Part shown: positions 11,009-45,907 of the stretch, in pieces
Position numbering within the stretch: the stretch's first letter is position 1
Layout: each line of letters begins with the position of its first letter
Source: a virus
DNA: 64,000 nt
IMG/VR virus record: IMGVR_UViG_3300050014_000899
Reading direction: 5' to 3' (one strand)
Translations under genes and position numbers: made by a program
The notes under the pieces: generated by a model
Database searches by the model: none
What the model was told of the DNA's origin: nothing
What the model saw: only the letters and a program-made list of their open reading frames with translations

Positions 11009-11551
11009 ATGAAAGCAAGCGAGTACATAAACAAAAAACCGGAGCTTCAATATAAAGAACCAAAAAAGAGGTTCTTTACAGGAGACAATGTTTCAAAGAT
11101 TATTGGAAATATGGTCTCTCTTGTGATAGTTTTTCTTTTGCTATCTACCGGAAAATGGGCTATGGAATTTATGATTGATCACCAGCCAGTTAAATTAACA
11201 CAGGCTCAAATTGATAGTGCTGTTGTAAAACTGGTAAAACCTGATACTGTTCGCATTGTAAAACCAGACACTCTTACCATTCCGGTTGAATACAAATATG
11301 TTGACTCTCGTTTTACAAGTAACGGGGACACAACTTATTGGTTTCTTACAGGTCGTTTGTTTGGCCCAAATGATTATTCATATGGAATGACACGAGTAAT
11401 AAAGCTTCCCTATTCTCATTTTGATTTTTATCAAGCCACTCAAATGATTATTAAAAGGGATTCCAAAGCCAATGATGCTGTTATTGAATATTTTTCTCAG
11501 ATTTCCAAAGCAACTTTTATTAGTTACAACAAATATGCAAAACATAGTTAA
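11009..11551 (+). CDS. hypothetical membrane-anchored protein
   Basis: One hydrophobic segment and a VKPDT repeat. Confidence 0.6.
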   Translation: MKASEYINKKPELQYKEPKKRFFTGDNVSKIIGNMVSLVIVFLLLSTGKWAMEFMIDHQPVKLTQAQIDSAVVKLVKPDTVRIVKPDTLTIPVEYKYVDSRFTSNGDTTYWFLTGRLFGPNDYSYGMTRVIKLPYSHFDFYQATQMIIKRDSKANDAVIEYFSQISKATFISYNKYAKHS

Positions 11552-11552
11552 A

Positions 11553-13520
11553 ATGAAAAGAAACTTAACAATTTTATTCCTGTTTATCTCTCTGAACCTA
11601 TTTGCTCAGAAATCGATATTGGATACAATTCAAATAAAAGAGGTAGTTGTTACCGGATCTCATACAGCTTCAAAGGAAACTCCTTTCACAGTTCAAAATC
11701 TTGATTCTAAGGATATTAGTTTGAGATGCATTGGAGCAGAACCTGCTACGGTTTTATCCTCCACTCCCTCTGTTACCTTTTATTCAGATAATGGTTCTGG
11801 AACGGGCTATAATTATTATCGTCTAAGAGGAATCGATCAGACTCGTATAAATTCCACTCTTAATGGGGTTCCTCTTAATGAACCGGAAGACCAGGGAATT
11901 TACTACAATAACTTTGGCGGATTTCTAAATGCTGTTTCTGGTATACAGATAATTAGAGGTGCTGGGCTTTCCAAGCCCGGGGTTTCTTCTTATGGTGGAA
12001 GCATTGATTTTACATCTCTTGAATTCTCTAAAAAATGGAGTGGAGTTGCTCAAGTTACCGGAGGATCTTACAATACTCGACAAATAAACGGTCTTATAAA
12101 TAGCCCCAATTTCTTTCTTCAGTTTAATAAAAGCTATACTGATGGATACAAAGAAAGATCCCAAAATAGCACTAATTCAGCATTTTACGGAGGAAAAATA
12201 TCTAAGGGAAATAATGAATTTAAACTCTATGGCTTTGTAGGAGAACAGGAAAATGGTATGGCCTGGATGGGGGAACCGCTTGACAGTATAAAGAAAAATC
12301 CCAGATATAATTCTAATACTGATAAAGAAGTCGATCATTTTTTAGAAGTTCACAATCAGCTTAATTGGAAGAATGGAATTGTTCAAGCTACAGTTTATCA
12401 CACTTACTTAGATGGATGGTATACAACTGATATGGGGCATTTTGACCCTTCCCATAAAATGGGGGACTTGATTAATAAATTAGCTCTTAAATCTAATTGG
12501 TTTGGAACAAATTTAAATATCCAACCAAAATTAGGATTTCTTTATACCAACTTTGGATTAAGTGCTTACACGTATACTCGCGATCATGCAGGATCTTATA
12601 ATAAATACAATCCAGCGGAACCTTGGTATTATTCTTATAACAACTCAGGAACTAAAAATGAATTTGCCCCTTATGCAAAAGCCGAAATAAAACTTGGAGG
12701 ATTTGCTATTTATGGGGATGCTCAATACCGATTATCCAGTTTTTCTTATAGTGGATTGATGCCATTCGAAACTCAAAAATATAAATTCTTCAATTGGAGT
12801 GGCGGTATGTCCATGTCAACTGGCAACAAATCCTCAGCTTATTATGGGGTTGGTTTAACCCACAGAGAACCTTCAAGGTCTGATATGTTTGCAGGGATTG
12901 ACGATTTGGATACTTCCATGATAGTCAACATATTACCAGAACAGGCTTTAAGTAATGAGCTTGGATGGAAATATAGGGATGGCGATATTGCATTCAATGC
13001 AAATCTTTATTATATGGACTTTAAAAACGAGATAGTTCTTAATGGAAAAGTGGGCCCAAACTCTTTACTTCTTCACCAAAATGCTGCTAAATCTTTTAGA
13101 AGCGGACTGGAAATAGATGCTTCATGGAATATAAATCCATTATGGACCTTATCTACGACTAACTCATTCTCCTACAATCGAATAAAACAAAATGGAGAAA
13201 CATTTCAGCCAGTTTTAACTCCTTCAATAATGCTAAGTGGAGACATCATGTTTAATGTATGTAGGAGCGTGTATACGGGACTCAATGCAAGTTACATCGG
13301 TAAATCTTACATTGACTTTTCGAATGAGCACCAATTACCCTCCAATACCTCAGCAAACATTTATGCAGGGGTCAATTGGAAACAGTTTTCAATCCGAGGA
13401 GAAATCTATAATATTTTGGATCAGGTTAGTTTTGCCAGTGCTGTTATGTCCGGATCAGAACCAAGATACTTCGTACAATCCAGAAGAAGCGGGATATTAT
13501 CATTAACCTATAAATTTTAA
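11553..13520 (+). CDS. TonB-dependent outer-membrane receptor (Bacteroidota vitamin-uptake type)
   Basis: Signal peptide from ATG at 11553, TonB box EVVVTG, plug RLRGIDQTRIN..NGVPLN, C-terminal LTYKF. Confidence 0.92.
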   Translation: MKRNLTILFLFISLNLFAQKSILDTIQIKEVVVTGSHTASKETPFTVQNLDSKDISLRCIGAEPATVLSSTPSVTFYSDNGSGTGYNYYRLRGIDQTRINSTLNGVPLNEPEDQGIYYNNFGGFLNAVSGIQIIRGAGLSKPGVSSYGGSIDFTSLEFSKKWSGVAQVTGGSYNTRQINGLINSPNFFLQFNKSYTDGYKERSQNSTNSAFYGGKISKGNNEFKLYGFVGEQENGMAWMGEPLDSIKKNPRYNSNTDKEVDHFLEVHNQLNWKNGIVQATVYHTYLDGWYTTDMGHFDPSHKMGDLINKLALKSNWFGTNLNIQPKLGFLYTNFGLSAYTYTRDHAGSYNKYNPAEPWYYSYNNSGTKNEFAPYAKAEIKLGGFAIYGDAQYRLSSFSYSGLMPFETQKYKFFNWSGGMSMSTGNKSSAYYGVGLTHREPSRSDMFAGIDDLDTSMIVNILPEQALSNELGWKYRDGDIAFNANLYYMDFKNEIVLNGKVGPNSLLLHQNAAKSFRSGLEIDASWNINPLWTLSTTNSFSYNRIKQNGETFQPVLTPSIMLSGDIMFNVCRSVYTGLNASYIGKSYIDFSNEHQLPSNTSANIYAGVNWKQFSIRGEIYNILDQVSFASAVMSGSEPRYFVQSRRSGILSLTYKF

Positions 13521-20152: not shown

Positions 20153-20944
20153 ATGTATTCAGGACTTATCTATTGTATTGTTTCCAAAGATGGAAAAAAG
20201 TATTATGGAAAAACTATTCAGCCTTTTAAAATAAGAATTAAACAGCATTTAAATGAAAAAAGGAATTGCAAAATTTCTAATGCTTTAAAAAAATATGGAA
20301 AAGATGAGTTCACCTATAATATAATAGAAAAATATGAATTCATATCAAGAGAGGAACTAATTGATAGACTTAATCAAAGAGAAATATATTGGATAGATAA
20401 GGATCAAACTCAAAAAAATGGATATAACATGACTCCAGGAGGGGATCGGGGGTCAGATACAAGAGGAATGGTAAAAGTTATAGATCCAAATTCAGGACAA
20501 AAATATTTTGTATCCACTAAAGATTCTAGATATATTTCGGGACAATTAATTTCTGCAATGAAAGGATTTTTATCTGTTAAAGATTTAGATGGAATAAGAT
20601 ACAGAATAAAAATTGATGACCCTGAATATTTAAAAGGAGTCTTAGTTTCTGTAAATAAAGGAATTGGAAAGGTTTCCGGAATGAAAGATAAAAAAATGTC
20701 GGAAGAGGCAAAAGAAGAAATCCGAAAAAAACGAGAAGGGACAAAACTTTCCGATATAACAAAATATAATATTAGTAAATCTAATTTAAATCATAAACGA
20801 ATGTCAGGAGAAAAAAATTCTCATTATGGTAAAAAATGGATACTAAATCCTTCTAAAACTCAAAGAATTTTAATAGAAAAAGATAAAGCAGAAGAATATA
20901 TTGCGTTAGGATGGGTTTTTGGCAGAAAAATAATTAATAAATAA
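20153..20944 (+). CDS. GIY-YIG homing endonuclease
   Basis: MYSGLIYC..KKYYGKT, GYNMTPGG, NUMOD3. Confidence 0.9.
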   Translation: MYSGLIYCIVSKDGKKYYGKTIQPFKIRIKQHLNEKRNCKISNALKKYGKDEFTYNIIEKYEFISREELIDRLNQREIYWIDKDQTQKNGYNMTPGGDRGSDTRGMVKVIDPNSGQKYFVSTKDSRYISGQLISAMKGFLSVKDLDGIRYRIKIDDPEYLKGVLVSVNKGIGKVSGMKDKKMSEEAKEEIRKKREGTKLSDITKYNISKSNLNHKRMSGEKNSHYGKKWILNPSKTQRILIEKDKAEEYIALGWVFGRKIINK

Positions 20945-22651: not shown

Positions 22652-23821
22652 ATGGAAGAAAAAGATTCCTCTAAAGAGAGGCAGACTCAACAGCTAGAGC
22701 AAGTTGATTCTACCGAACCTCCCCTCGTCTGCTCTAACCAATCTCAGGTATTCAAAAACAAATTTTATCCTAATGCAACCCAACAAGAATGGGGTGACTG
22801 GAAATGGCAAATCAGAAATAGCATTACCAGCTATGAAGAATTAGCCAGAATTTTCGGTTCATCTGATTGCGAAGTTTCGGAAGATATAAATTTGCCTCTC
22901 AGAATTACTCCTTATTACGCCAGTACTATCAAGGATCCAAAAGGTCCGATTGGAAGATGCGTGATTCCCTCAAGCAATGAACTTATTGTAACAGAAAATG
23001 AAGAAAATGATTCTTTGCATGAAGAACAATACAGTCCTGTTCCGAATATCGTTCATCGTTATCCAGACCGTGTTCTATTCTTGACGACTGATTTTTGTTC
23101 ATCCTACTGTCGTTATTGTACCCGATCTCACATGGTTTCTCATCAGGAGATAACCAAAAAATTATGGGATAAGGGTATCGACTATATTCGCCAACATCCA
23201 GAAGTAAGAGACGTTCTCTTATCTGGTGGGGATTTTTTAACAATGAGTGATGAATCTATTGAGTACTTATTGAAGAATATCAGAGCTATTGAACACGTGG
23301 AATTCTTACGTATTGGAACTAAAGTTCCGGTTGTACTTCCACAAAGAATAACTCCAGAACTCGTCAACATGCTCAAAAAATACCATCCATTGTTTATGAG
23401 TATTCACTTTTCTCATCCGGATGAATTAACTCCAGAAGTAAAAGAAGCTTGTGAAAGACTTGCCGATGCAGGTATCCCATTAGGGTCCCAAACTGTCTTG
23501 CTGAAGGGTGTTAACGATGATGTAGCGACCATGAAAAGTCTTATGCATGGTTTACTTAAGATCAGAGTTCGACCTTATTATATCTATGCGTGCGACCTCG
23601 TACCGGGAACTTCCCATTTTAGAACTACAATCAATACTGGGCTTCAAATTATCCAGGGATTAAGAGGTTGGACAAGTGGTTATGCAGTTCCGCAATTTGT
23701 TATAGATGCTCCTGGCGGAGGTGGAAAAATTCCATTACTTCCAGAGTATTTCTTGGGTATGGATGGAAACAAAGTAAGACTTCGTAACTACGAAGGAAAA
23801 GAGTTTATCTATACGGAATAA
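22652..23821 (+). CDS. kamA: KamA-family radical SAM aminomutase (lysine 2,3-aminomutase-like)
   Basis: HRYPDRVL, CSSYCRYCTR, LLSGGD, QTVLLKGVND, DAPGGGGKIP. Confidence 0.93.
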   Translation: MEEKDSSKERQTQQLEQVDSTEPPLVCSNQSQVFKNKFYPNATQQEWGDWKWQIRNSITSYEELARIFGSSDCEVSEDINLPLRITPYYASTIKDPKGPIGRCVIPSSNELIVTENEENDSLHEEQYSPVPNIVHRYPDRVLFLTTDFCSSYCRYCTRSHMVSHQEITKKLWDKGIDYIRQHPEVRDVLLSGGDFLTMSDESIEYLLKNIRAIEHVEFLRIGTKVPVVLPQRITPELVNMLKKYHPLFMSIHFSHPDELTPEVKEACERLADAGIPLGSQTVLLKGVNDDVATMKSLMHGLLKIRVRPYYIYACDLVPGTSHFRTTINTGLQIIQGLRGWTSGYAVPQFVIDAPGGGGKIPLLPEYFLGMDGNKVRLRNYEGKEFIYTE

Positions 23822-26253: not shown

Positions 26254-26805
26254 ATGGAAAATTTAATTTATGGTCTTTATTGTCCTATAAGAAAAAAACC
26301 AGTTTATGTTGGTCAAACTACTAAAGGAATTGATAGACCCTTTCAACATATAAAAGAACGATCTCATAGTAAAAAAGTTAATGAGTGGGTTCATGAATTA
26401 AAGAAGGATGGATTAACTCCAATAATAGTAATTTTGGAGACTTTTGAAGATTCTTCATTGTTGGATGATAAAGAAAGATTTTGGGTTCAGAAATTTTTAA
26501 ACGAAGGCGAATTACTTTTAAATCAACAATTAGTATCCCCTTTAATTTTAACAGTAGCTGAATTTTCAGAACAGAGGGAAACAACATTTAAAGATGAATT
26601 AGCTTTATTTGTTAAGGGAAGGAGAAAAATTTTAAATTTAACTCAGCAAAGATTTTGTGAAAAGACTGGGATTGGATTAAGATTTCTTCGAAGTGTTGAG
26701 CAAGGAAAATTCAAAAAAGATAATTTTAGTACGAAATCAATTGAAACTGTACTTTATTATTTAGGAGCAAGATTAACTATAGGACCTTATAAAAAAGAAG
26801 AATGA
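26254..26805 (+). CDS. GIY-YIG-like domain fused to XRE-type HTH
   Basis: LIYGLYCP..YVGQT and LTQQRFCEKTGIGLRFLRSVEQG; paralog at 45944. Confidence 0.8.
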   Translation: MENLIYGLYCPIRKKPVYVGQTTKGIDRPFQHIKERSHSKKVNEWVHELKKDGLTPIIVILETFEDSSLLDDKERFWVQKFLNEGELLLNQQLVSPLILTVAEFSEQRETTFKDELALFVKGRRKILNLTQQRFCEKTGIGLRFLRSVEQGKFKKDNFSTKSIETVLYYLGARLTIGPYKKEE

Positions 26806-27410
26806 AATTATTTCTCTTAAAAAGAAAATTCGATGGATTTGATCACTGGGATGTTACAATGGGTCTCGTGGTCGCTGCAGATAATGAAAATGATGCTTGG
26901 GAAGTTAATGGAGCAATCAATTTCAATCTTGACCGTCAAGAGGTAGAAATAACAGAATTAGGGGGAGCAAACCCAAACATTGAAAGAGGAATTATTTTGG
27001 AAGATTATAAAAGCTAAATAAGATGTTAACAGAAAAAAATACCGTACTTTTACCTCTTGAAGATTATAATGATCTTAGAGATTTTAAACAGAATCTTGAA
27101 AAAAATAATTCTGCTCGAATTACAGGAGGCAGATACAGTGGTGGAAACTCTTACACTTTTGTGTCTACAGAAGAAACGGTAAAATTGGCTACAAAATTTA
27201 ATGATGAGCTGATTAAGGAAAATAATGAATTAAGATCTAAAGTTTCAGAATTGCAAACTTTGAAGGATCTTCCAAAACCGGCACCAGTACCGTTAAACAC
27301 ATACCAACTTAATGAACTCAAAAATATGACAATTTGGGAGTTCAGAAAATGGAAAAAACAAAAATAAAAATAATTTTACATTAAGTTAAAACTTTTCGGG
27401 AAAATCCCGT

Positions 27411-27420
27411 AATATATAGA
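27411..27420 (+). promoter_or_regulatory. putative phage (late-type) promoter for tRNA operon 1
   Basis: AATATATAGA, same ATATATA core seen before the HE genes and the prohead protease. Confidence 0.55.
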
Positions 27421-27443
27421 GAAACTAATAAATACTACAGCAA

Positions 27444-27548
27444 ATGACAAGGCGTGCAAATATGGATAATTTCGTGGATTGGGGCTTTAATAGAGCAGCC
27501 AATAAAGACGGAGGTTATGGATGCCCGCTAAGGTGGAGAGGTATTTAA
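27444..27548 (+). CDS. attenuator leader peptide of tRNA operon 1 (MTRRANMDNFVDWGFNRAANKDGGYGCPLRWRGI)
   Basis: 34-codon ORF between promoter and terminator; codons 3-24 match downstream anticodons; contains antiterminator GGATGCCCGCT (27519-27529). Confidence 0.8.
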   Translation: MTRRANMDNFVDWGFNRAANKDGGYGCPLRWRGI

Positions 27549-27575
27549 CGAGGTAGTTAAAAAAATCTTTATATT

Positions 27576-27608
27576 AAGCGGGATCCCAACAGGTCCCGCT
27601 TTTCTTTT
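27576..27608 (+). terminator. attenuator terminator upstream of tRNA operon 1
   Basis: AAGCGGGATC-CCAACA-GGTCCCGCTT followed by TTCTTTT. Confidence 0.9.
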
Positions 27609-27675
27609 GATTAAAATTATGGAGCTTAAGCTAATCTAGTGAAAGCACTAACTCATCTAAATTTCTCTACTTTAT

Positions 27676-27762
27676 GGTCTCAGGAGCTGCTAGGCGTGGC
27701 TGCCGGACTGTCACTCCGGAACAGGTAAAACTGACAGGTGGGTTCGAATCCCATTGAGACCG
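27676..27762 (+). tRNA. tRNA-Asp(GTC) with long variable arm
   Basis: GGTCTCA/TGAGACC acceptor, CCGGA-CTGTCAC-TCCGG, TTCGAAT T-loop. Confidence 0.85.
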
Positions 27763-27817
27763 CAACAAATATGCTCGGTAAAGCCTCTTATGATAAATAA
27801 CGTAACTGAGTACTTAT

Positions 27818-27894
27818 AGGGGTGTAGTTCAAGTGGTAGAATAGTGGTCTCCAAAACCAAAGGTTTGCGGGTTCGAGTCCTGCCACCCCTGCCA
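27818..27894 (+). tRNA. tRNA-Trp(CCA)
   Basis: AGGGGTG/CACCCCT acceptor, loop CTCCAAA, encoded CCA. Confidence 0.93.
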
Positions 27895-27984
27895 GAGATT
27901 TAGTATATGTGAAGACTTGAAGGACTTTGGCCCTTGATTTTAGAGCTTACATACTTTCATGCCAATGAAGGAACTAAATCACAA

Positions 27985-28058
27985 GGGGAATTAGCTCAGT
28001 TGGCTAGAGCACCTGCCCTGCAAGCAGGGGGTCACGAGTTCGACTCTCGTATTCTCCA
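27985..28058 (+). tRNA. tRNA-Ala(TGC), C33 variant
   Basis: G3-U70; CCTGC-CCTGCAA-GCAGG. Confidence 0.92.
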
Positions 28059-28189
28059 CTCGAGGATGTTCGGCATCATTCAACTCATTCCAAGAAGGTG
28101 TCAAGTAACGAATGTCTAAGTTAAGTCACAGCGGCCGTACCTATAACGGTCAAAATTTCATGCTCGGGCTTTTTTCCGGTTCGTTACTT
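28059..28189 (+). ncRNA. structured RNA containing a 23S rRNA helix 69 mimic
   Basis: GCGGCCGTACCTATAACGGTC at 28131-28151. Confidence 0.65.
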
Positions 28190-28192
28190 TAT

Positions 28193-28265
28193 GCGCTTTT
28201 AGCTCAGATGGTAGAGTAGGTGCCTCTTAAGCATCGGGTCCAGGGTTCGATCCCCTGAAGGCGCA
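28193..28265 (+). tRNA. tRNA-Lys(CTT)
   Basis: Cloverleaf with loop CTCTTAA. Confidence 0.92.
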
Positions 28266-28350
28266 CAAATGAAAGTGAACGGCGCGTCTACCGTTTAATG
28301 ATTACCGACAAGTTGAAAAAGTCTTGGGCTATAACAGCTTTCATTTATTT

Positions 28351-28426
28351 GGGACGTAGGTCAAACGGTTAAGATGTCGGCCTGTCACGCCGTACGGAGC
28401 GGGTTCAACTCCCGTACGTCCCGCCA
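28351..28426 (+). tRNA. tRNA-Asp(GTC)
   Basis: Cloverleaf, loop CTGTCAC, G73-CCA. Confidence 0.93.
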
Positions 28427-28528
28427 ATATGTAGTAAGAAAAGGGTTACATCGGTTATGATTGGTTCGATTCCAATTTTACCCTGCGAAAGCTCGGGTGA
28501 ATTAAAGCTCTTTTCAATTTTCTCATAT
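28427..28528 (+). ncRNA. Y-RNA-like (YrlA-like) RNA with T-arm and closed acceptor cargo
   Basis: ATATG-TAGTAA..TTACATCG..ATTGG-TTCGATT-CCAAT..AATTTTCT-CATAT. Confidence 0.72.
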
Positions 28529-28534
28529 CGTTTT

Positions 28535-28608
28535 GTCGATAATAGTTTAATGGTAGAATATCCAGCGGTAAAACGAGGGAAGGAACCGGTTCGATTCCGG
28601 CTAAGACT
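28535..28608 (+). ncRNA. degenerate tRNA-like element
   Basis: D-arm and T-arm present; anticodon arm and acceptor are aberrant. Confidence 0.45.
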
Positions 28609-28611
28609 CCT

Positions 28612-28761
28612 GGGAGTATAGCTCAATGGTAGAGCAATTGGCTGTCTACAGACAGAAGTGTCTGAATAAAAACTTTAGGTGAAGTCTTATGAAGTTAAAG
28701 GAATCAAAATCCTCTTCATCTGCTAACCAATAGGTTCTGGGTTCGAGTCCCTGTGCCCCCG
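28612..28761 (+). tRNA. tRNA-Asn(GTT) interrupted by a 78-nt anticodon insertion
   Basis: ATTGG-CTGT[28646-28723]TAA-CCAAT; G73. Confidence 0.75.
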
Positions 28762-28828
28762 CTAATAACTAATAAGCAAAAAGATAAAAGTTCGAAACTT
28801 TTTCTGAATATATAGTAAAAGATATATT

Positions 28829-29548
28829 ATGAAGAGTTGCGAAAATTGTCAAAAAGAGCATGAAGGAACTTATGGTTCTGGAAGATTTTGTTCAGCTGAA
28901 TGTGCTAGGGGATTTAGCACAAAAGAAAAACGTTCTTTGATAAATGAAAAAATAAGCAAAAAAATGAAAGGATCGGGACATTCTGATATAAAAATAATTT
29001 GTCCTATATGCCAAACAGAATTTGAAGTTTCATGGAATAAAAGAAATCAAAAATTTTGTTCACGAAATTGTTCAATGAGATTTTCTAATTCTCAACCAGA
29101 AAATATAAAAAATTTATCTTTAAAAAGAATCAACAAAATACTTAAAGGACAAGTAAATGATTATGGTATAAAGATGATATATAAATTCAAAAATAAGGAT
29201 ATTAAATGCGATTCAAAAATAGAATTTGCTTGTTTAAATTTTTTTGAAACTAAAGAGGCATCAGAGATGGAAAGATGCAATCTAATTATTGAATATAAGG
29301 ATAAAGATAAAATAAGAAGATTTAATCCGGATTTTAAAATAAAAATAGATAATAATATTTATATTGTTGAAGTTAAGAGTTATATGAGTATTAAATCTAT
29401 AAATGAAAAATGGCGAAATTATAATGAATTATCTAAATTGAAAAAAGAAGCTTTAATAAATTTTTGTCAATTAAATAACTATATTCCCTTTTGGTTTACA
29501 AAAGATTTAAACAGAAATTTTTATAATAATGTTTCGGTCGTACTATAA
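28829..29548 (+). CDS. putative homing endonuclease (Zn fingers plus PD-(D/E)xK)
   Basis: CENC..GSGRFCS, FNPDF..IVEVKS; ATATATA promoter. Confidence 0.8.
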   Translation: MKSCENCQKEHEGTYGSGRFCSAECARGFSTKEKRSLINEKISKKMKGSGHSDIKIICPICQTEFEVSWNKRNQKFCSRNCSMRFSNSQPENIKNLSLKRINKILKGQVNDYGIKMIYKFKNKDIKCDSKIEFACLNFFETKEASEMERCNLIIEYKDKDKIRRFNPDFKIKIDNNIYIVEVKSYMSIKSINEKWRNYNELSKLKKEALINFCQLNNYIPFWFTKDLNRNFYNNVSVVL

Positions 29549-30397: not shown

Positions 30398-30537
30398 AAA
30401 CTGTAGTAAAACAGCGAGTTACTTCGTATTCCAAACGACTAGTCTAGGTGCAAATCCTGGGTCCCCTGCCAAAATTACTTAGGGGATTAGTGTAATAGAT
30501 AGCACAGTAAAAACACTCAAGTTAAATTTCTCAGTTT
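30398..30537 (+). ncRNA. Y-RNA-like RNA containing a circularly permuted tRNA-Trp
   Basis: Scaffold encloses the 3' half (TTCCAAA..T-arm..GTCCCCT-G-CCA) before the 5' half (AGGGGAT plus D-arm). Confidence 0.78.
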
Positions 30538-31094: not shown

Positions 31095-31601
31095 ATGTAT
31101 TATACAATTTACAAAACTACGAATAAATTTAATGGCAAGTTTTATATCGGAAAGCATCAGACTCAGAAATTAAATGATAATTATTTAGGGTCTGGAAAAG
31201 CTTTGGAACTGGCTATTAAGAAATACGGTAAAGAGAATTTTCAAAAAAGAATTATTTTTGTTTTTGATAATGAAATTTTAATGAATCAAAAAGAAAAAGA
31301 AATTGTTACAGAGAATTTTATATCCAGCAATACAAATTATAATTGTGGGGTTGGGGGAGAAGGAGGAGCTCAATTCTTAAATAAATCTCACTCTGAAAAA
31401 ACTAAAAAATTGCTTGCTGAAAAAGCTAAATTAATAAAGCCCTCTAAAGAAACTAGAGATAAAATATCAGAGGGTAATAGAAAAAGAACATTATCTAAAG
31501 AAACAAGAAATAAACTCTCTCAAAAATCTTTCGAGAGATGGAAAAAATTGCGGGTTGGAGAAAATAGTCATCTCATTGGGCTCATAACCCAAGGTTGCTA
31601 G
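31095..31601 (+). CDS. GIY-YIG homing endonuclease (SegB-like)
   Basis: YTIYKTTN..FYIGKH, YLGSG, NUMOD3. Confidence 0.92.
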   Translation: MYYTIYKTTNKFNGKFYIGKHQTQKLNDNYLGSGKALELAIKKYGKENFQKRIIFVFDNEILMNQKEKEIVTENFISSNTNYNCGVGGEGGAQFLNKSHSEKTKKLLAEKAKLIKPSKETRDKISEGNRKRTLSKETRNKLSQKSFERWKKLRVGENSHLIGLITQGC

Positions 31602-31871: not shown

Positions 31872-31977
31872 AATCGTAGTAATGGAAAGAGTTACTTCGT
31901 GCTAATGGTTAGCAAAATCCTGTTAAGATTACTTCGCGGTTCAATTCCGCCTGTTACCTCTTCCGATTTTCTCGATT
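31872..31977 (+). ncRNA. Y-RNA-like RNA carrying D, anticodon (GTT) and T arms
   Basis: AATCG-TAGTAA..TTACTTCG, D-arm, AATC-CTGTTAA-GATT, T-arm..GATTTTCT-CGATT. Confidence 0.72.
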
Positions 31978-45034: not shown

Positions 45035-45907
45035 ATGAAAGACGAATTAGGTGACAGAATGAAGGGTAATTACGAAGACAGAACTCGTTTCTCCCTTCCA
45101 AGAAGAACATATACAATTATCCGAGTTGACGGAAAAGCATTTCACACATTAACAAAGGGGATGTGTAAACCGTTCAGCGTAGATTTTAAACAAAACGTAT
45201 TTGCTGGTTTTATGGACAAAACAGCAAAAGCTTTATGCGAACATATTCAAGGAGCTCAGTTTGCTTTTGTTCAGTCCGATGAAATCTCAGTTTTGTTAAC
45301 TGATTTTGAAAAGACTACAACTGATGCATGGTTTGATGCCAATATTCAGAAAATGGCTTCCGTAGCTGCTTCAATTGCTACAGCTGCTTTTAACAAAGCT
45401 AGACTGATAAGAGTTTTCGAGGAATTCCCCAATACATTTGATATTGAACCTGAATTGGATTGCTATACTGTTGCAAAAATGATCGATATGGTTAAAGTTG
45501 GGGAATTTGATGCAAGAGTATTTACTATCCCGGATCCAATAGAAGTTGAAAACTACTTTATATGGAGACAAAAAGATGCCGTAAGAAACTCTGTTTCGAT
45601 GGCCGCTAAATCTCTTTATTCAACAAAAGAACTCGAAGGAGTATCTTCTCAGGGAAAACTGGATTTGATTCACGATAAAGGAGAAAATTGGAATGATCTC
45701 CCCGATGGATTTAAAAGAGGACGTTTAATATCTTACAACTATTCTTTTGATCTTGAAACTGCTCCTTTAAATACTGGATCCTTTAAAGAAGAACACCAAA
45801 TGGTTGAGGGGGTTTCCAGAGGAGCTTGGGAAGTTAATCCTGCTCCGGATTTTCTTAAGGAAAGGGATGAGTTGAGAGACCGTATTCCAAAAATAGAAGT
45901 AAATTAA
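45035..45907 (+). CDS. thg1: tRNA-His guanylyltransferase-like protein (Thg1/TLP)
   Basis: IIRVDGKAFH, QSDEIS, FDAR, YFIWRQKDA. Confidence 0.95.
   Translation: MKDELGDRMKGNYEDRTRFSLPRRTYTIIRVDGKAFHTLTKGMCKPFSVDFKQNVFAGFMDKTAKALCEHIQGAQFAFVQSDEISVLLTDFEKTTTDAWFDANIQKMASVAASIATAAFNKARLIRVFEEFPNTFDIEPELDCYTVAKMIDMVKVGEFDARVFTIPDPIEVENYFIWRQKDAVRNSVSMAAKSLYSTKELEGVSSQGKLDLIHDKGENWNDLPDGFKRGRLISYNYSFDLETAPLNTGSFKEEHQMVEGVSRGAWEVNPAPDFLKERDELRDRIPKIEVN

Follow-up and report, generated by a model that had tools for sequence, protein, structure and literature searches.

The tRNA operon of a large T4-like phage from peat holds, between two tRNA genes, a hairpin that nearly duplicates helix 69 (H69) of 23S rRNA, which raises the question of what a phage might do with a free copy of a single ribosomal helix. 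As the central inter-subunit bridge of the ribosome, H69 is a substrate of RluD and comes into contact with tRNAs in the A and P sites, with release factors and RRF, and with tmRNA-SmpB (PMC1190176). The window, meaning here the whole 64,000-nucleotide (64-kb) stretch of DNA that was analysed, covers part of the phage genome, with a gp23-type capsid gene, a prohead protease gene, NAD-salvage genes and at least 26 tRNA genes, the latter all on the + strand. Genes for a TonB-dependent receptor-like protein (11472-13520; Plug and barrel) and a Thg1-like tRNA-His guanylyltransferase (45035-45907) were also observed in the window.

The first-pass annotation, made from the DNA letters alone, had described a 21-mer at 28131-28151 on the + strand as an H69 mimic. 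The 21-mer was present exactly as claimed, with 20 of 21 bases identical to the 23S consensus, and the H69 sequence used for that comparison agreed with the real E. coli 23S gene. Extended to 28128-28151, the match to one E. coli allele comprises 23 of 24 bases, equivalent to E. coli 1901-1924. With the numbering anchored on the three uridines U1911/1915/1917 (PMC1190176), the sole mismatch falls at A1913, where the phage base is C, confirming the position that had been assigned to the change. All other loop bases considered, namely A1912, C1914, U1915, A1916, U1917, A1918 and A1919, are retained, and the H69 stem, the 7-nt loop size and the functionally critical loop bases are preserved in the phage hairpin. 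In E. coli, strong phenotypes were reported for the loop positions A1912, U1917, A1919 and A1916 (assembly in the case of A1916), and A1913G, the sole mutation tested at A1913, gave no clear phenotype (PMC1190176). A loop that keeps the phenotype-critical bases and changes only A1913 is the pattern expected of a mimic maintained for recognition, although a single sequence cannot prove selection. The A1913C variant had no other match in IMG/VR and was absent from all phages of the GenBank set.

The similarity to rRNA is sharply bounded. None of 100 shuffled sequences gave any match to H69 with up to three mismatches allowed, and in the short-word BLAST comparison that the first-pass annotation had proposed, here run with the 64-kb window against five rRNA operons, the H69 stretch was the only outlier. 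The flank upstream of the copy does not resemble 23S rRNA (p = 0.68 against shuffles). Downstream, an alignment of 28153-28168 with 23S 1936-1950 (H70/71) has one gap and 13 identities in 16 columns, which shuffled sequence equals with p of about 0.05, so that the second 23S match previously read after the hairpin is marginal. A search of the spacer 28060-28192 against Rfam with E up to 10 returned no match to LSU, group I intron or YrlA families. In these comparisons, the demonstrably rRNA-like part is the hairpin plus the three bases before it, and nothing more.

Such a short match could have arisen by accident, in one hairpin of an ordinary structured spacer or processing element. By our own estimate, chance alone should yield roughly 0.3-0.5 equally good matches to H69 in a scan of about 250,000 windows, and the copy comes from a single lineage in which no covariation can be seen. 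We nevertheless consider chance resemblance unlikely: the match is the sole rRNA-like outlier of the window, it covers a complete and self-contained hairpin, and it lies on the strand predicted to be expressed, in the little of the window that is both non-coding and structured.

The hairpin is part of a larger predicted structure (Table 1). The minimum-energy and centroid folds of the cassette agree (z = -2.4), and the closing stem of 11 bp consists of 10 Watson-Crick pairs and one G-U pair. Inside this stem, the H69-like hairpin is followed by an unpaired A-rich strand. The annotation had placed the copy among further helices, which the folding supports: 28103-28113 pairs with 28179-28189, and the minimum-energy fold keeps the H69 hairpin inside. 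The 5' hairpin at 28072-28102 is weak and predicted with low confidence. No second copy of the cassette was found in the window, and no terminal duplication of the transposon kind was found at the cassette.

Table 1 Features of the cassette and of the tRNA genes that bound it
Feature	Position	Strand	Basis
tRNA-Ala(UGC), 5' boundary of the cassette	27985-28059	+	ARAGORN; Rfam tRNA 65.8 bits
Strain-variable cassette, 133 nt, the entire inter-tRNA spacer	28060-28192	+	Contig comparison
Predicted 5' hairpin, G-U-rich, low confidence	28072-28102	+	Minimum-energy and centroid folds
Closing stem, 5' strand (AAGTAACGAAT), holds the CGAA tract	28103-28113	+	Pairs with 28179-28189
Segment resembling 23S rRNA, counterpart of E. 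coli 1901-1924	28128-28151	+	23/24 to one E. coli allele
Hairpin resembling H69, with a stem of 6 bp (28133-28138/28146-28151) and the 7-nt loop ACCTATA	28133-28151	+	Fold
A-rich linker and possible short hairpin, weakly like 23S 1936-1961 (H70/71)	28152-28178	+	p about 0.05
Closing stem, 3' strand (GTTCGTTACTT), 3 nt before tRNA-Lys	28179-28189	+	Pairs with 28103-28113
tRNA-Lys(CUU), 3' boundary of the cassette	28193-28266	+	ARAGORN; Rfam tRNA

The placement of the hairpin inside the tRNA operon, which had also been annotated, holds as well: it lies in a structured RNA, in the sense orientation of a + strand tRNA operon, 3' of the operon leader and its terminator. The only strong terminator-like site (27576-27601) heads the tRNA array, upstream of the cassette, and one weak terminator-like site (28165-28183) lies inside the cassette. 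No promoter-like site was found on the + strand around the cassette, and with only the weak terminator-like site inside, the cassette is probably co-transcribed with the tRNAs. No RNA dataset was listed with the cassette stretch, and two metatranscriptome runs of a related study contained next to none of its sequence words. Endonuclease-like ORFs lie in or beside the array, including two of the GIY-YIG type (26254-26805 and 31095-31601), one of the PD-(D/E)XK type (28829-29548) and a homing endonuclease (20153-20944). The neighbouring ORFs led to few relatives. A 389-aa protein (22652-23821) led to five loci, with synteny limited to that gene and without the H69 motif; no relatives were found through the ORF at 28829-29548; and the 114-aa ORF at 27023-27367 has only two homologues, both distant. 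In a comparison of the window with the huge phage LR756501, the tRNAs were the only shared part.

To follow the cassette among strains, contigs from four other peat metagenomes (X3, X4, X5 and X8) were compared with 27400-29000 of the window. A 2240-nt contig from X3 is identical to the window over 27649-28268, cassette included, and a contig from X4 spans 28117-28448 with one difference. The 413-nt contig from X8 has no difference in tRNA-Ala, one in tRNA-Lys and five in 28347-28504, and is identical to the window at 303 of 309 aligned flanking bases, but 28060-28192 is absent from it exactly, five bases (AATTC) joining 28059 to 28193. The boundaries of this indel coincide with the tRNA ends, which marks the 133-nt spacer as a separate module rather than filler. 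The same contig also lacks 28268-28346, with 28267 joined to 28347 and no bases between; this spacer of 79 nt is closed by a 9-bp stem (AAATGAAAG/CTTTCATTT). Since both stem-closed spacers are exactly absent from the X8 relative, both are optional cassettes. Conservation in relatives, on which the first-pass annotation had made its reading depend, therefore holds in part: the motif is unchanged in two other samples and is missing from one near-identical relative, so that the cassette is accessory, dispensable in at least one lineage, which counts against an essential role. The copies seen are identical or nearly so and thus offer no covariation and allow no test of selection, and searches of IMG/VR, metagenomes and GenBank phages found no diverged relative with the cassette.

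Other parts of the tRNA array vary as well, and the array is reshuffled between strains in whole modules. In the X3 contig, 18 different bases stand where the window has 514 nt (28269-28782) that include tRNA-Asp, a scaffold RNA at 28427 and a tRNA with a 78-nt insert (28612-28761). For the last of these, two DNA contigs from X5 skip exactly 28646-28723, and in contigs from X3, X4 and X8 the interval from about 28636-28639 to 28733 is taken up by 15-18 different bases; DNA of relatives free of the insert therefore exists.

The presence of the cassette in some strains and its absence from another would also fit a relic of captured host DNA, that is, a functionless scrap of a 23S rRNA gene, and so would the tRNA-Ala(UGC) gene directly upstream. 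tRNA-Ala(UGC) precedes the 23S gene in many rrn operons, and the scrap may have been captured together with this tRNA, although beyond the tRNA itself nothing recalls an rrn spacer. By a second route, the source of the scrap would be a 23S allele that carries a group I intron after U1923, with homing-endonuclease repair as a possible means of transfer. Homing-endonuclease-like ORFs populate the tRNA array, and the best database match to the cassette is to intron-bearing 23S alleles, at 23 of 24 bases including the first intron bases CAAA.

The second route can be compared with real examples. When metagenomes were scanned for the hairpin with AAA directly after it, 12 matches resulted, of which ten are genuine 23S genes interrupted by an intron after U1923, as established with Rfam for three and by matching 23S flanks for the other seven (L008-L011, L013, L014 and L016-L019). 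In these genes, the exon stops at ...ACGGT, the group I intron starts with CAAA and ends with G, and the exon resumes with CCTAAGG; in the five loci long enough to include the 3' exon, the intron measures about 700 nt. Resumption at CCTAAGG marks the classical, I-CeuI-type site after U1923. Insertions in rRNA have been surveyed (PMC11270868). The cassette shares with the intron-bearing genes an identical 5' exon end plus CAAA but has no intron core, guide sequence or 3' exon. In particular, the exon complement that would act as guide sequence for TATAACGGT is absent downstream, unlike in the ten real introns, and the right half (3' exon) of the I-CeuI-type site (CTAAGGTAGCG) is also absent. 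AAA after the hairpin is expected about one time in 30 in this A-rich DNA. Against a relic of either origin, the 23S similarity is confined to 24 nt, with no Rfam match to LSU or group I models, and the fragment is neatly integrated in a stem-closed fold. Moreover, 96% identity over one complete helix beside random flanks is not expected from uniform decay. Because the identity stops abruptly and the flanks are not 23S-like, selective retention or copying of the hairpin fits better than uniform decay of a captured gene, and we regard a functionless relic as improbable.

The reading that we favour, tentatively, is an accessory small RNA that is freed by tRNA processing and shows its H69 look-alike as bait or decoy, possibly in connection with Ro60 and Y RNAs. 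The analysis shows the match to H69, the fold around it, its setting in the operon and its place in a variable cassette; that a stable RNA is released, and that it binds anything, is inference. The operon transcript would be cut by the maturation enzymes of the neighbouring tRNAs, with 3' processing behind tRNA-Ala generating the 5' end of the cassette RNA and RNase P, acting at the 5' end of tRNA-Lys, generating its 3' end. The freed RNA of 90-133 nt, its 3' end tucked into the 11-bp closing stem, would then present a near-exact 23S H69 hairpin followed by the unpaired A-rich strand, and is probably a ribosome look-alike. Before a factor that recognises the hairpin, it would compete with or replace ribosomal H69 and so serve as bait or decoy. 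An RNA-surveillance particle of the Ro60/Y-RNA type appears to be the best lead for a partner, given the scaffold RNAs in the same operon; H69-modifying enzymes, H69-binding factors and H69-directed nucleases are alternative candidates. The sequence by itself singles out none of the targets that the first-pass annotation had proposed, namely toxins, RluD, RlmH and splitting factors. An isolated hairpin may compete poorly for RluD and RlmH, whose action on H69 takes place in assembled subunits.

Further copies of H69 were searched for in other phages and genomes. An IMG/VR scan for the exact hairpin returned one rRNA contaminant and four phage contigs. Three of the four are interrelated and carry a copy of 23S 1907-1934, identical at 27 of 28 positions, that adjoins tRNA genes on the opposite strand (L025 940-967, L028 101-128 and L029 7432-7459). 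RNA made at these copies may be antisense to H69-H70; by eye only, a promoter-like site was noted upstream on the tRNA strand. The fourth contig is a complete phage of 205,462 bp with terminal repeats, unrelated to the window phage, and contains an exact 21-nt H69 copy. A tRNA-like 3' end precedes this copy by about 55 nt and a terminator (hairpin plus T run) follows it; the copy stands 76 nt upstream of, and on the same strand as, a 520-aa ORF with TROVE and Ro60-vWA domains. The order upstream of Ro60 (L031 1223-1560, corresponding to about 82125-82462 of G002:C1) is a scaffold RNA ending in AATTTTCTC, a tRNA-like acceptor/T-arm minihelix ending in CCA, the H69 copy and the terminator. No close relative of the 205-kb phage was found in the GenBank phage set, but proteins 70-76% identical to its Ro60 are encoded on contigs of 208-222 kb. 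That an unrelated phage has an exact copy, in a small-RNA cluster upstream of Ro60, suggests that H69 copies are indeed maintained by phages.

The remaining occurrences are more isolated. IMG/VR gave no match for the exact hairpin not followed by C, and one match for the hairpin followed by AAA, in a Staphylococcus-phage-like contig. In Staphylococcus phage SpP (PP468606; L022 1250-2030), and also in locus L001, an H69 17-mer followed by AAAA lies in a 780-nt unannotated stretch that matches no Rfam family; this stretch, which folds strongly (z = -3.4), has the fragments of a split terminase large-subunit gene on one side and the following gene on the other. The other two of the 12 metagenome matches, in which the exact hairpin is followed by AAAA, come from long intergenic regions of high-GC bacteria. 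One is upstream of an SPFH gene in a Kofleriaceae MAG (L012 3553-3575, the same locus as L020 7901-7923, recovered in both the metagenome and the species-genome scans), and the other is on the - strand of a high-GC contig (L015 566-588), with the hairpin about 55 nt after a tRNA-like 3' end. An AT-rich 23-mer is unexpected in the high-GC DNA of these two loci. In the predicted folds of the SpP, Kofleriaceae and high-GC-contig sites, the hairpin forms one arm of a junction closed by a stem, and none of these sites has a TROVE gene. When the five H69-bearing contexts outside rRNA were aligned, the hairpin was the only common structure. The isolated exact 17-21-mers at the SpP, Kofleriaceae and high-GC-contig sites occur at roughly the number expected by chance and would, like the close relative without the element, suit an accidental resemblance. 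The exact copy in the 205-kb phage, however, has an equivalent small-RNA setting, and this precedent, together with placement in a structured non-coding module, makes chance the less favoured explanation for the cassette.

The neighbourhood of Ro60 in the 205-kb phage directs attention to Y RNAs, for which a scaffold pattern was defined as a closing helix, TAG[TC][AG]A, a later ATTT(T)CTC and a final segment complementary to that helix. Among 80 phage Ro60 loci, 11 contain the pattern, with 13 occurrences in all; every one is on the strand of Ro60 and none on the opposite strand, and most precede the gene by 75-300 nt. The window contains strict matches for at least three RNAs on the + strand (28427-28528, 30399-30536 and 31872-31977) and none on the - strand, indicating that the tRNA operon of the window phage carries RNAs of the type adjacent to phage Ro60 genes; these three are probably Ro60-type Y RNAs. 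In both phages with a sense H69 copy (n = 2), the copy is clustered with scaffold-type RNAs. An H69-like 19-mer with up to three mismatches was found in only one of the 80 phage Ro60 loci with 2.5-kb flanks, that of the 205-kb phage, and a link between Ro60 and H69 is therefore not general. No TROVE gene was found in the 64-kb window when 16 ORFs (10 of them of at least 200 aa) were searched by Pfam and five further large ORFs in PHROGs, and tblastn of the entire window with phage Ro60 gave no TROVE match.

The cassette might itself belong to the Ro60-bound Y-RNA family, with H69 replacing the usual tRNA-like module. In that case Ro60 would sit on the closing stem, and the H69 module would link the particle to a partner that recognises this helix. 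The location of the other phage's copy in a Y-RNA cluster upstream of Ro60 and the three or more strict Y-type scaffolds in the operon of the cassette are in line with this, as are the AGTAA and CGAA tracts of the closing stem, which resemble the 5' motif of the scaffold and the CGAA motif of Y RNAs (PMC4201824; PMC12135203). The CGAA motif has been used to find Y RNAs, in whose terminal stem the Ro60-binding motif GNCGAAN0-1G occurs near the 5' end (PMC4201824; PMC12135203); the 5' strand of the closing stem (AAGTAACGAATG) contains CGAA with an A in place of the first G. Yet the cassette has neither ATTT(T)CTC by its closing strand nor an internal loop or bulge, ARAGORN identified no tRNA-like gene in it, and Rfam YrlA (RF02553) gave no match with E up to 10. 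Since the 3' motif and the internal loop are lacking, the cassette is not a Y RNA by the tests run. With no TROVE gene in the window and 79 of the 80 phage Ro60 loci without an H69 copy, direct membership in the Y-RNA family is quite doubtful.

Among known systems, two non-tRNA RNAs of phage T4, RNAC and RNAD (species 1 and 2), come from the tRNA region and have no known role (PMC3014915). Like the cassette, they are small non-tRNA RNAs among the tRNA genes of a T4-like phage, and they are co-transcribed with the tRNAs (PMC3014915), so that they may be regarded as its nearest described analogue. The cassette has no BLAST-level similarity to phages in GenBank, however, and rRNA mimicry is not reported for the T4 RNAs. 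Y RNAs of the YrlA type, which Ro60/Rsr binds (RF02553; PMC4201824; PMC12135203), are likewise stem-closed, display a look-alike of a cellular RNA, in their case a tRNA, and occur in phages, whereas the cassette has no Y scaffold, tRNA-like module or Rfam match, and the window no Ro60 gene. A third comparison concerns the ribosome itself.

Mimicry of rRNA sites in the leaders of ribosomal-protein mRNAs underlies the autoregulation of L1, L20 and S15. In these leaders, as is proposed for the cassette, a short extra-ribosomal copy of an rRNA element and the ribosomal site compete for a binding partner, but the leaders act in cis on the mRNA of the binder itself, whereas the cassette stands alone between phage tRNAs. 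To our knowledge, H69 is not the primary binding site of any ribosomal protein. Mimicry of tRNAs by viral and bacterial small RNAs is established, whereas a copy of an rRNA helix in a phage RNA was not found reported; our literature search returned no paper on a phage-encoded H69 copy or on a phage RNA that copies a functional rRNA helix.

If the cassette RNA is made together with the phage tRNAs, a free H69 copy would point to an H69-aimed activity, of the host or of a rival, that phages buffer or exploit, and the copy would provide a defined bait for fishing out such an activity. The question is directly testable, as natural variants with and without the cassette exist. A broader proposal, which we consider rather unlikely at present, is that large phages deploy free H69 copies, released from tRNA operons, as a toolkit of the Ro60/Y-RNA type that diverts or recruits the factors inspecting, modifying, splitting or degrading the large subunit. 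Were it true, the phage H69 toolkit would represent a class of rRNA-mimicking regulatory RNAs without known description in the literature. In addition, a 16/16 match to another conserved stretch in the 3' third of 23S rRNA (GGCTGAAGTAGGTCCC) was observed about 1.4 kb upstream of the Ro60 gene of another phage (L062 1064-1079), and may represent a second kind of rRNA look-alike or a chance match (E = 0.006 in a small search).
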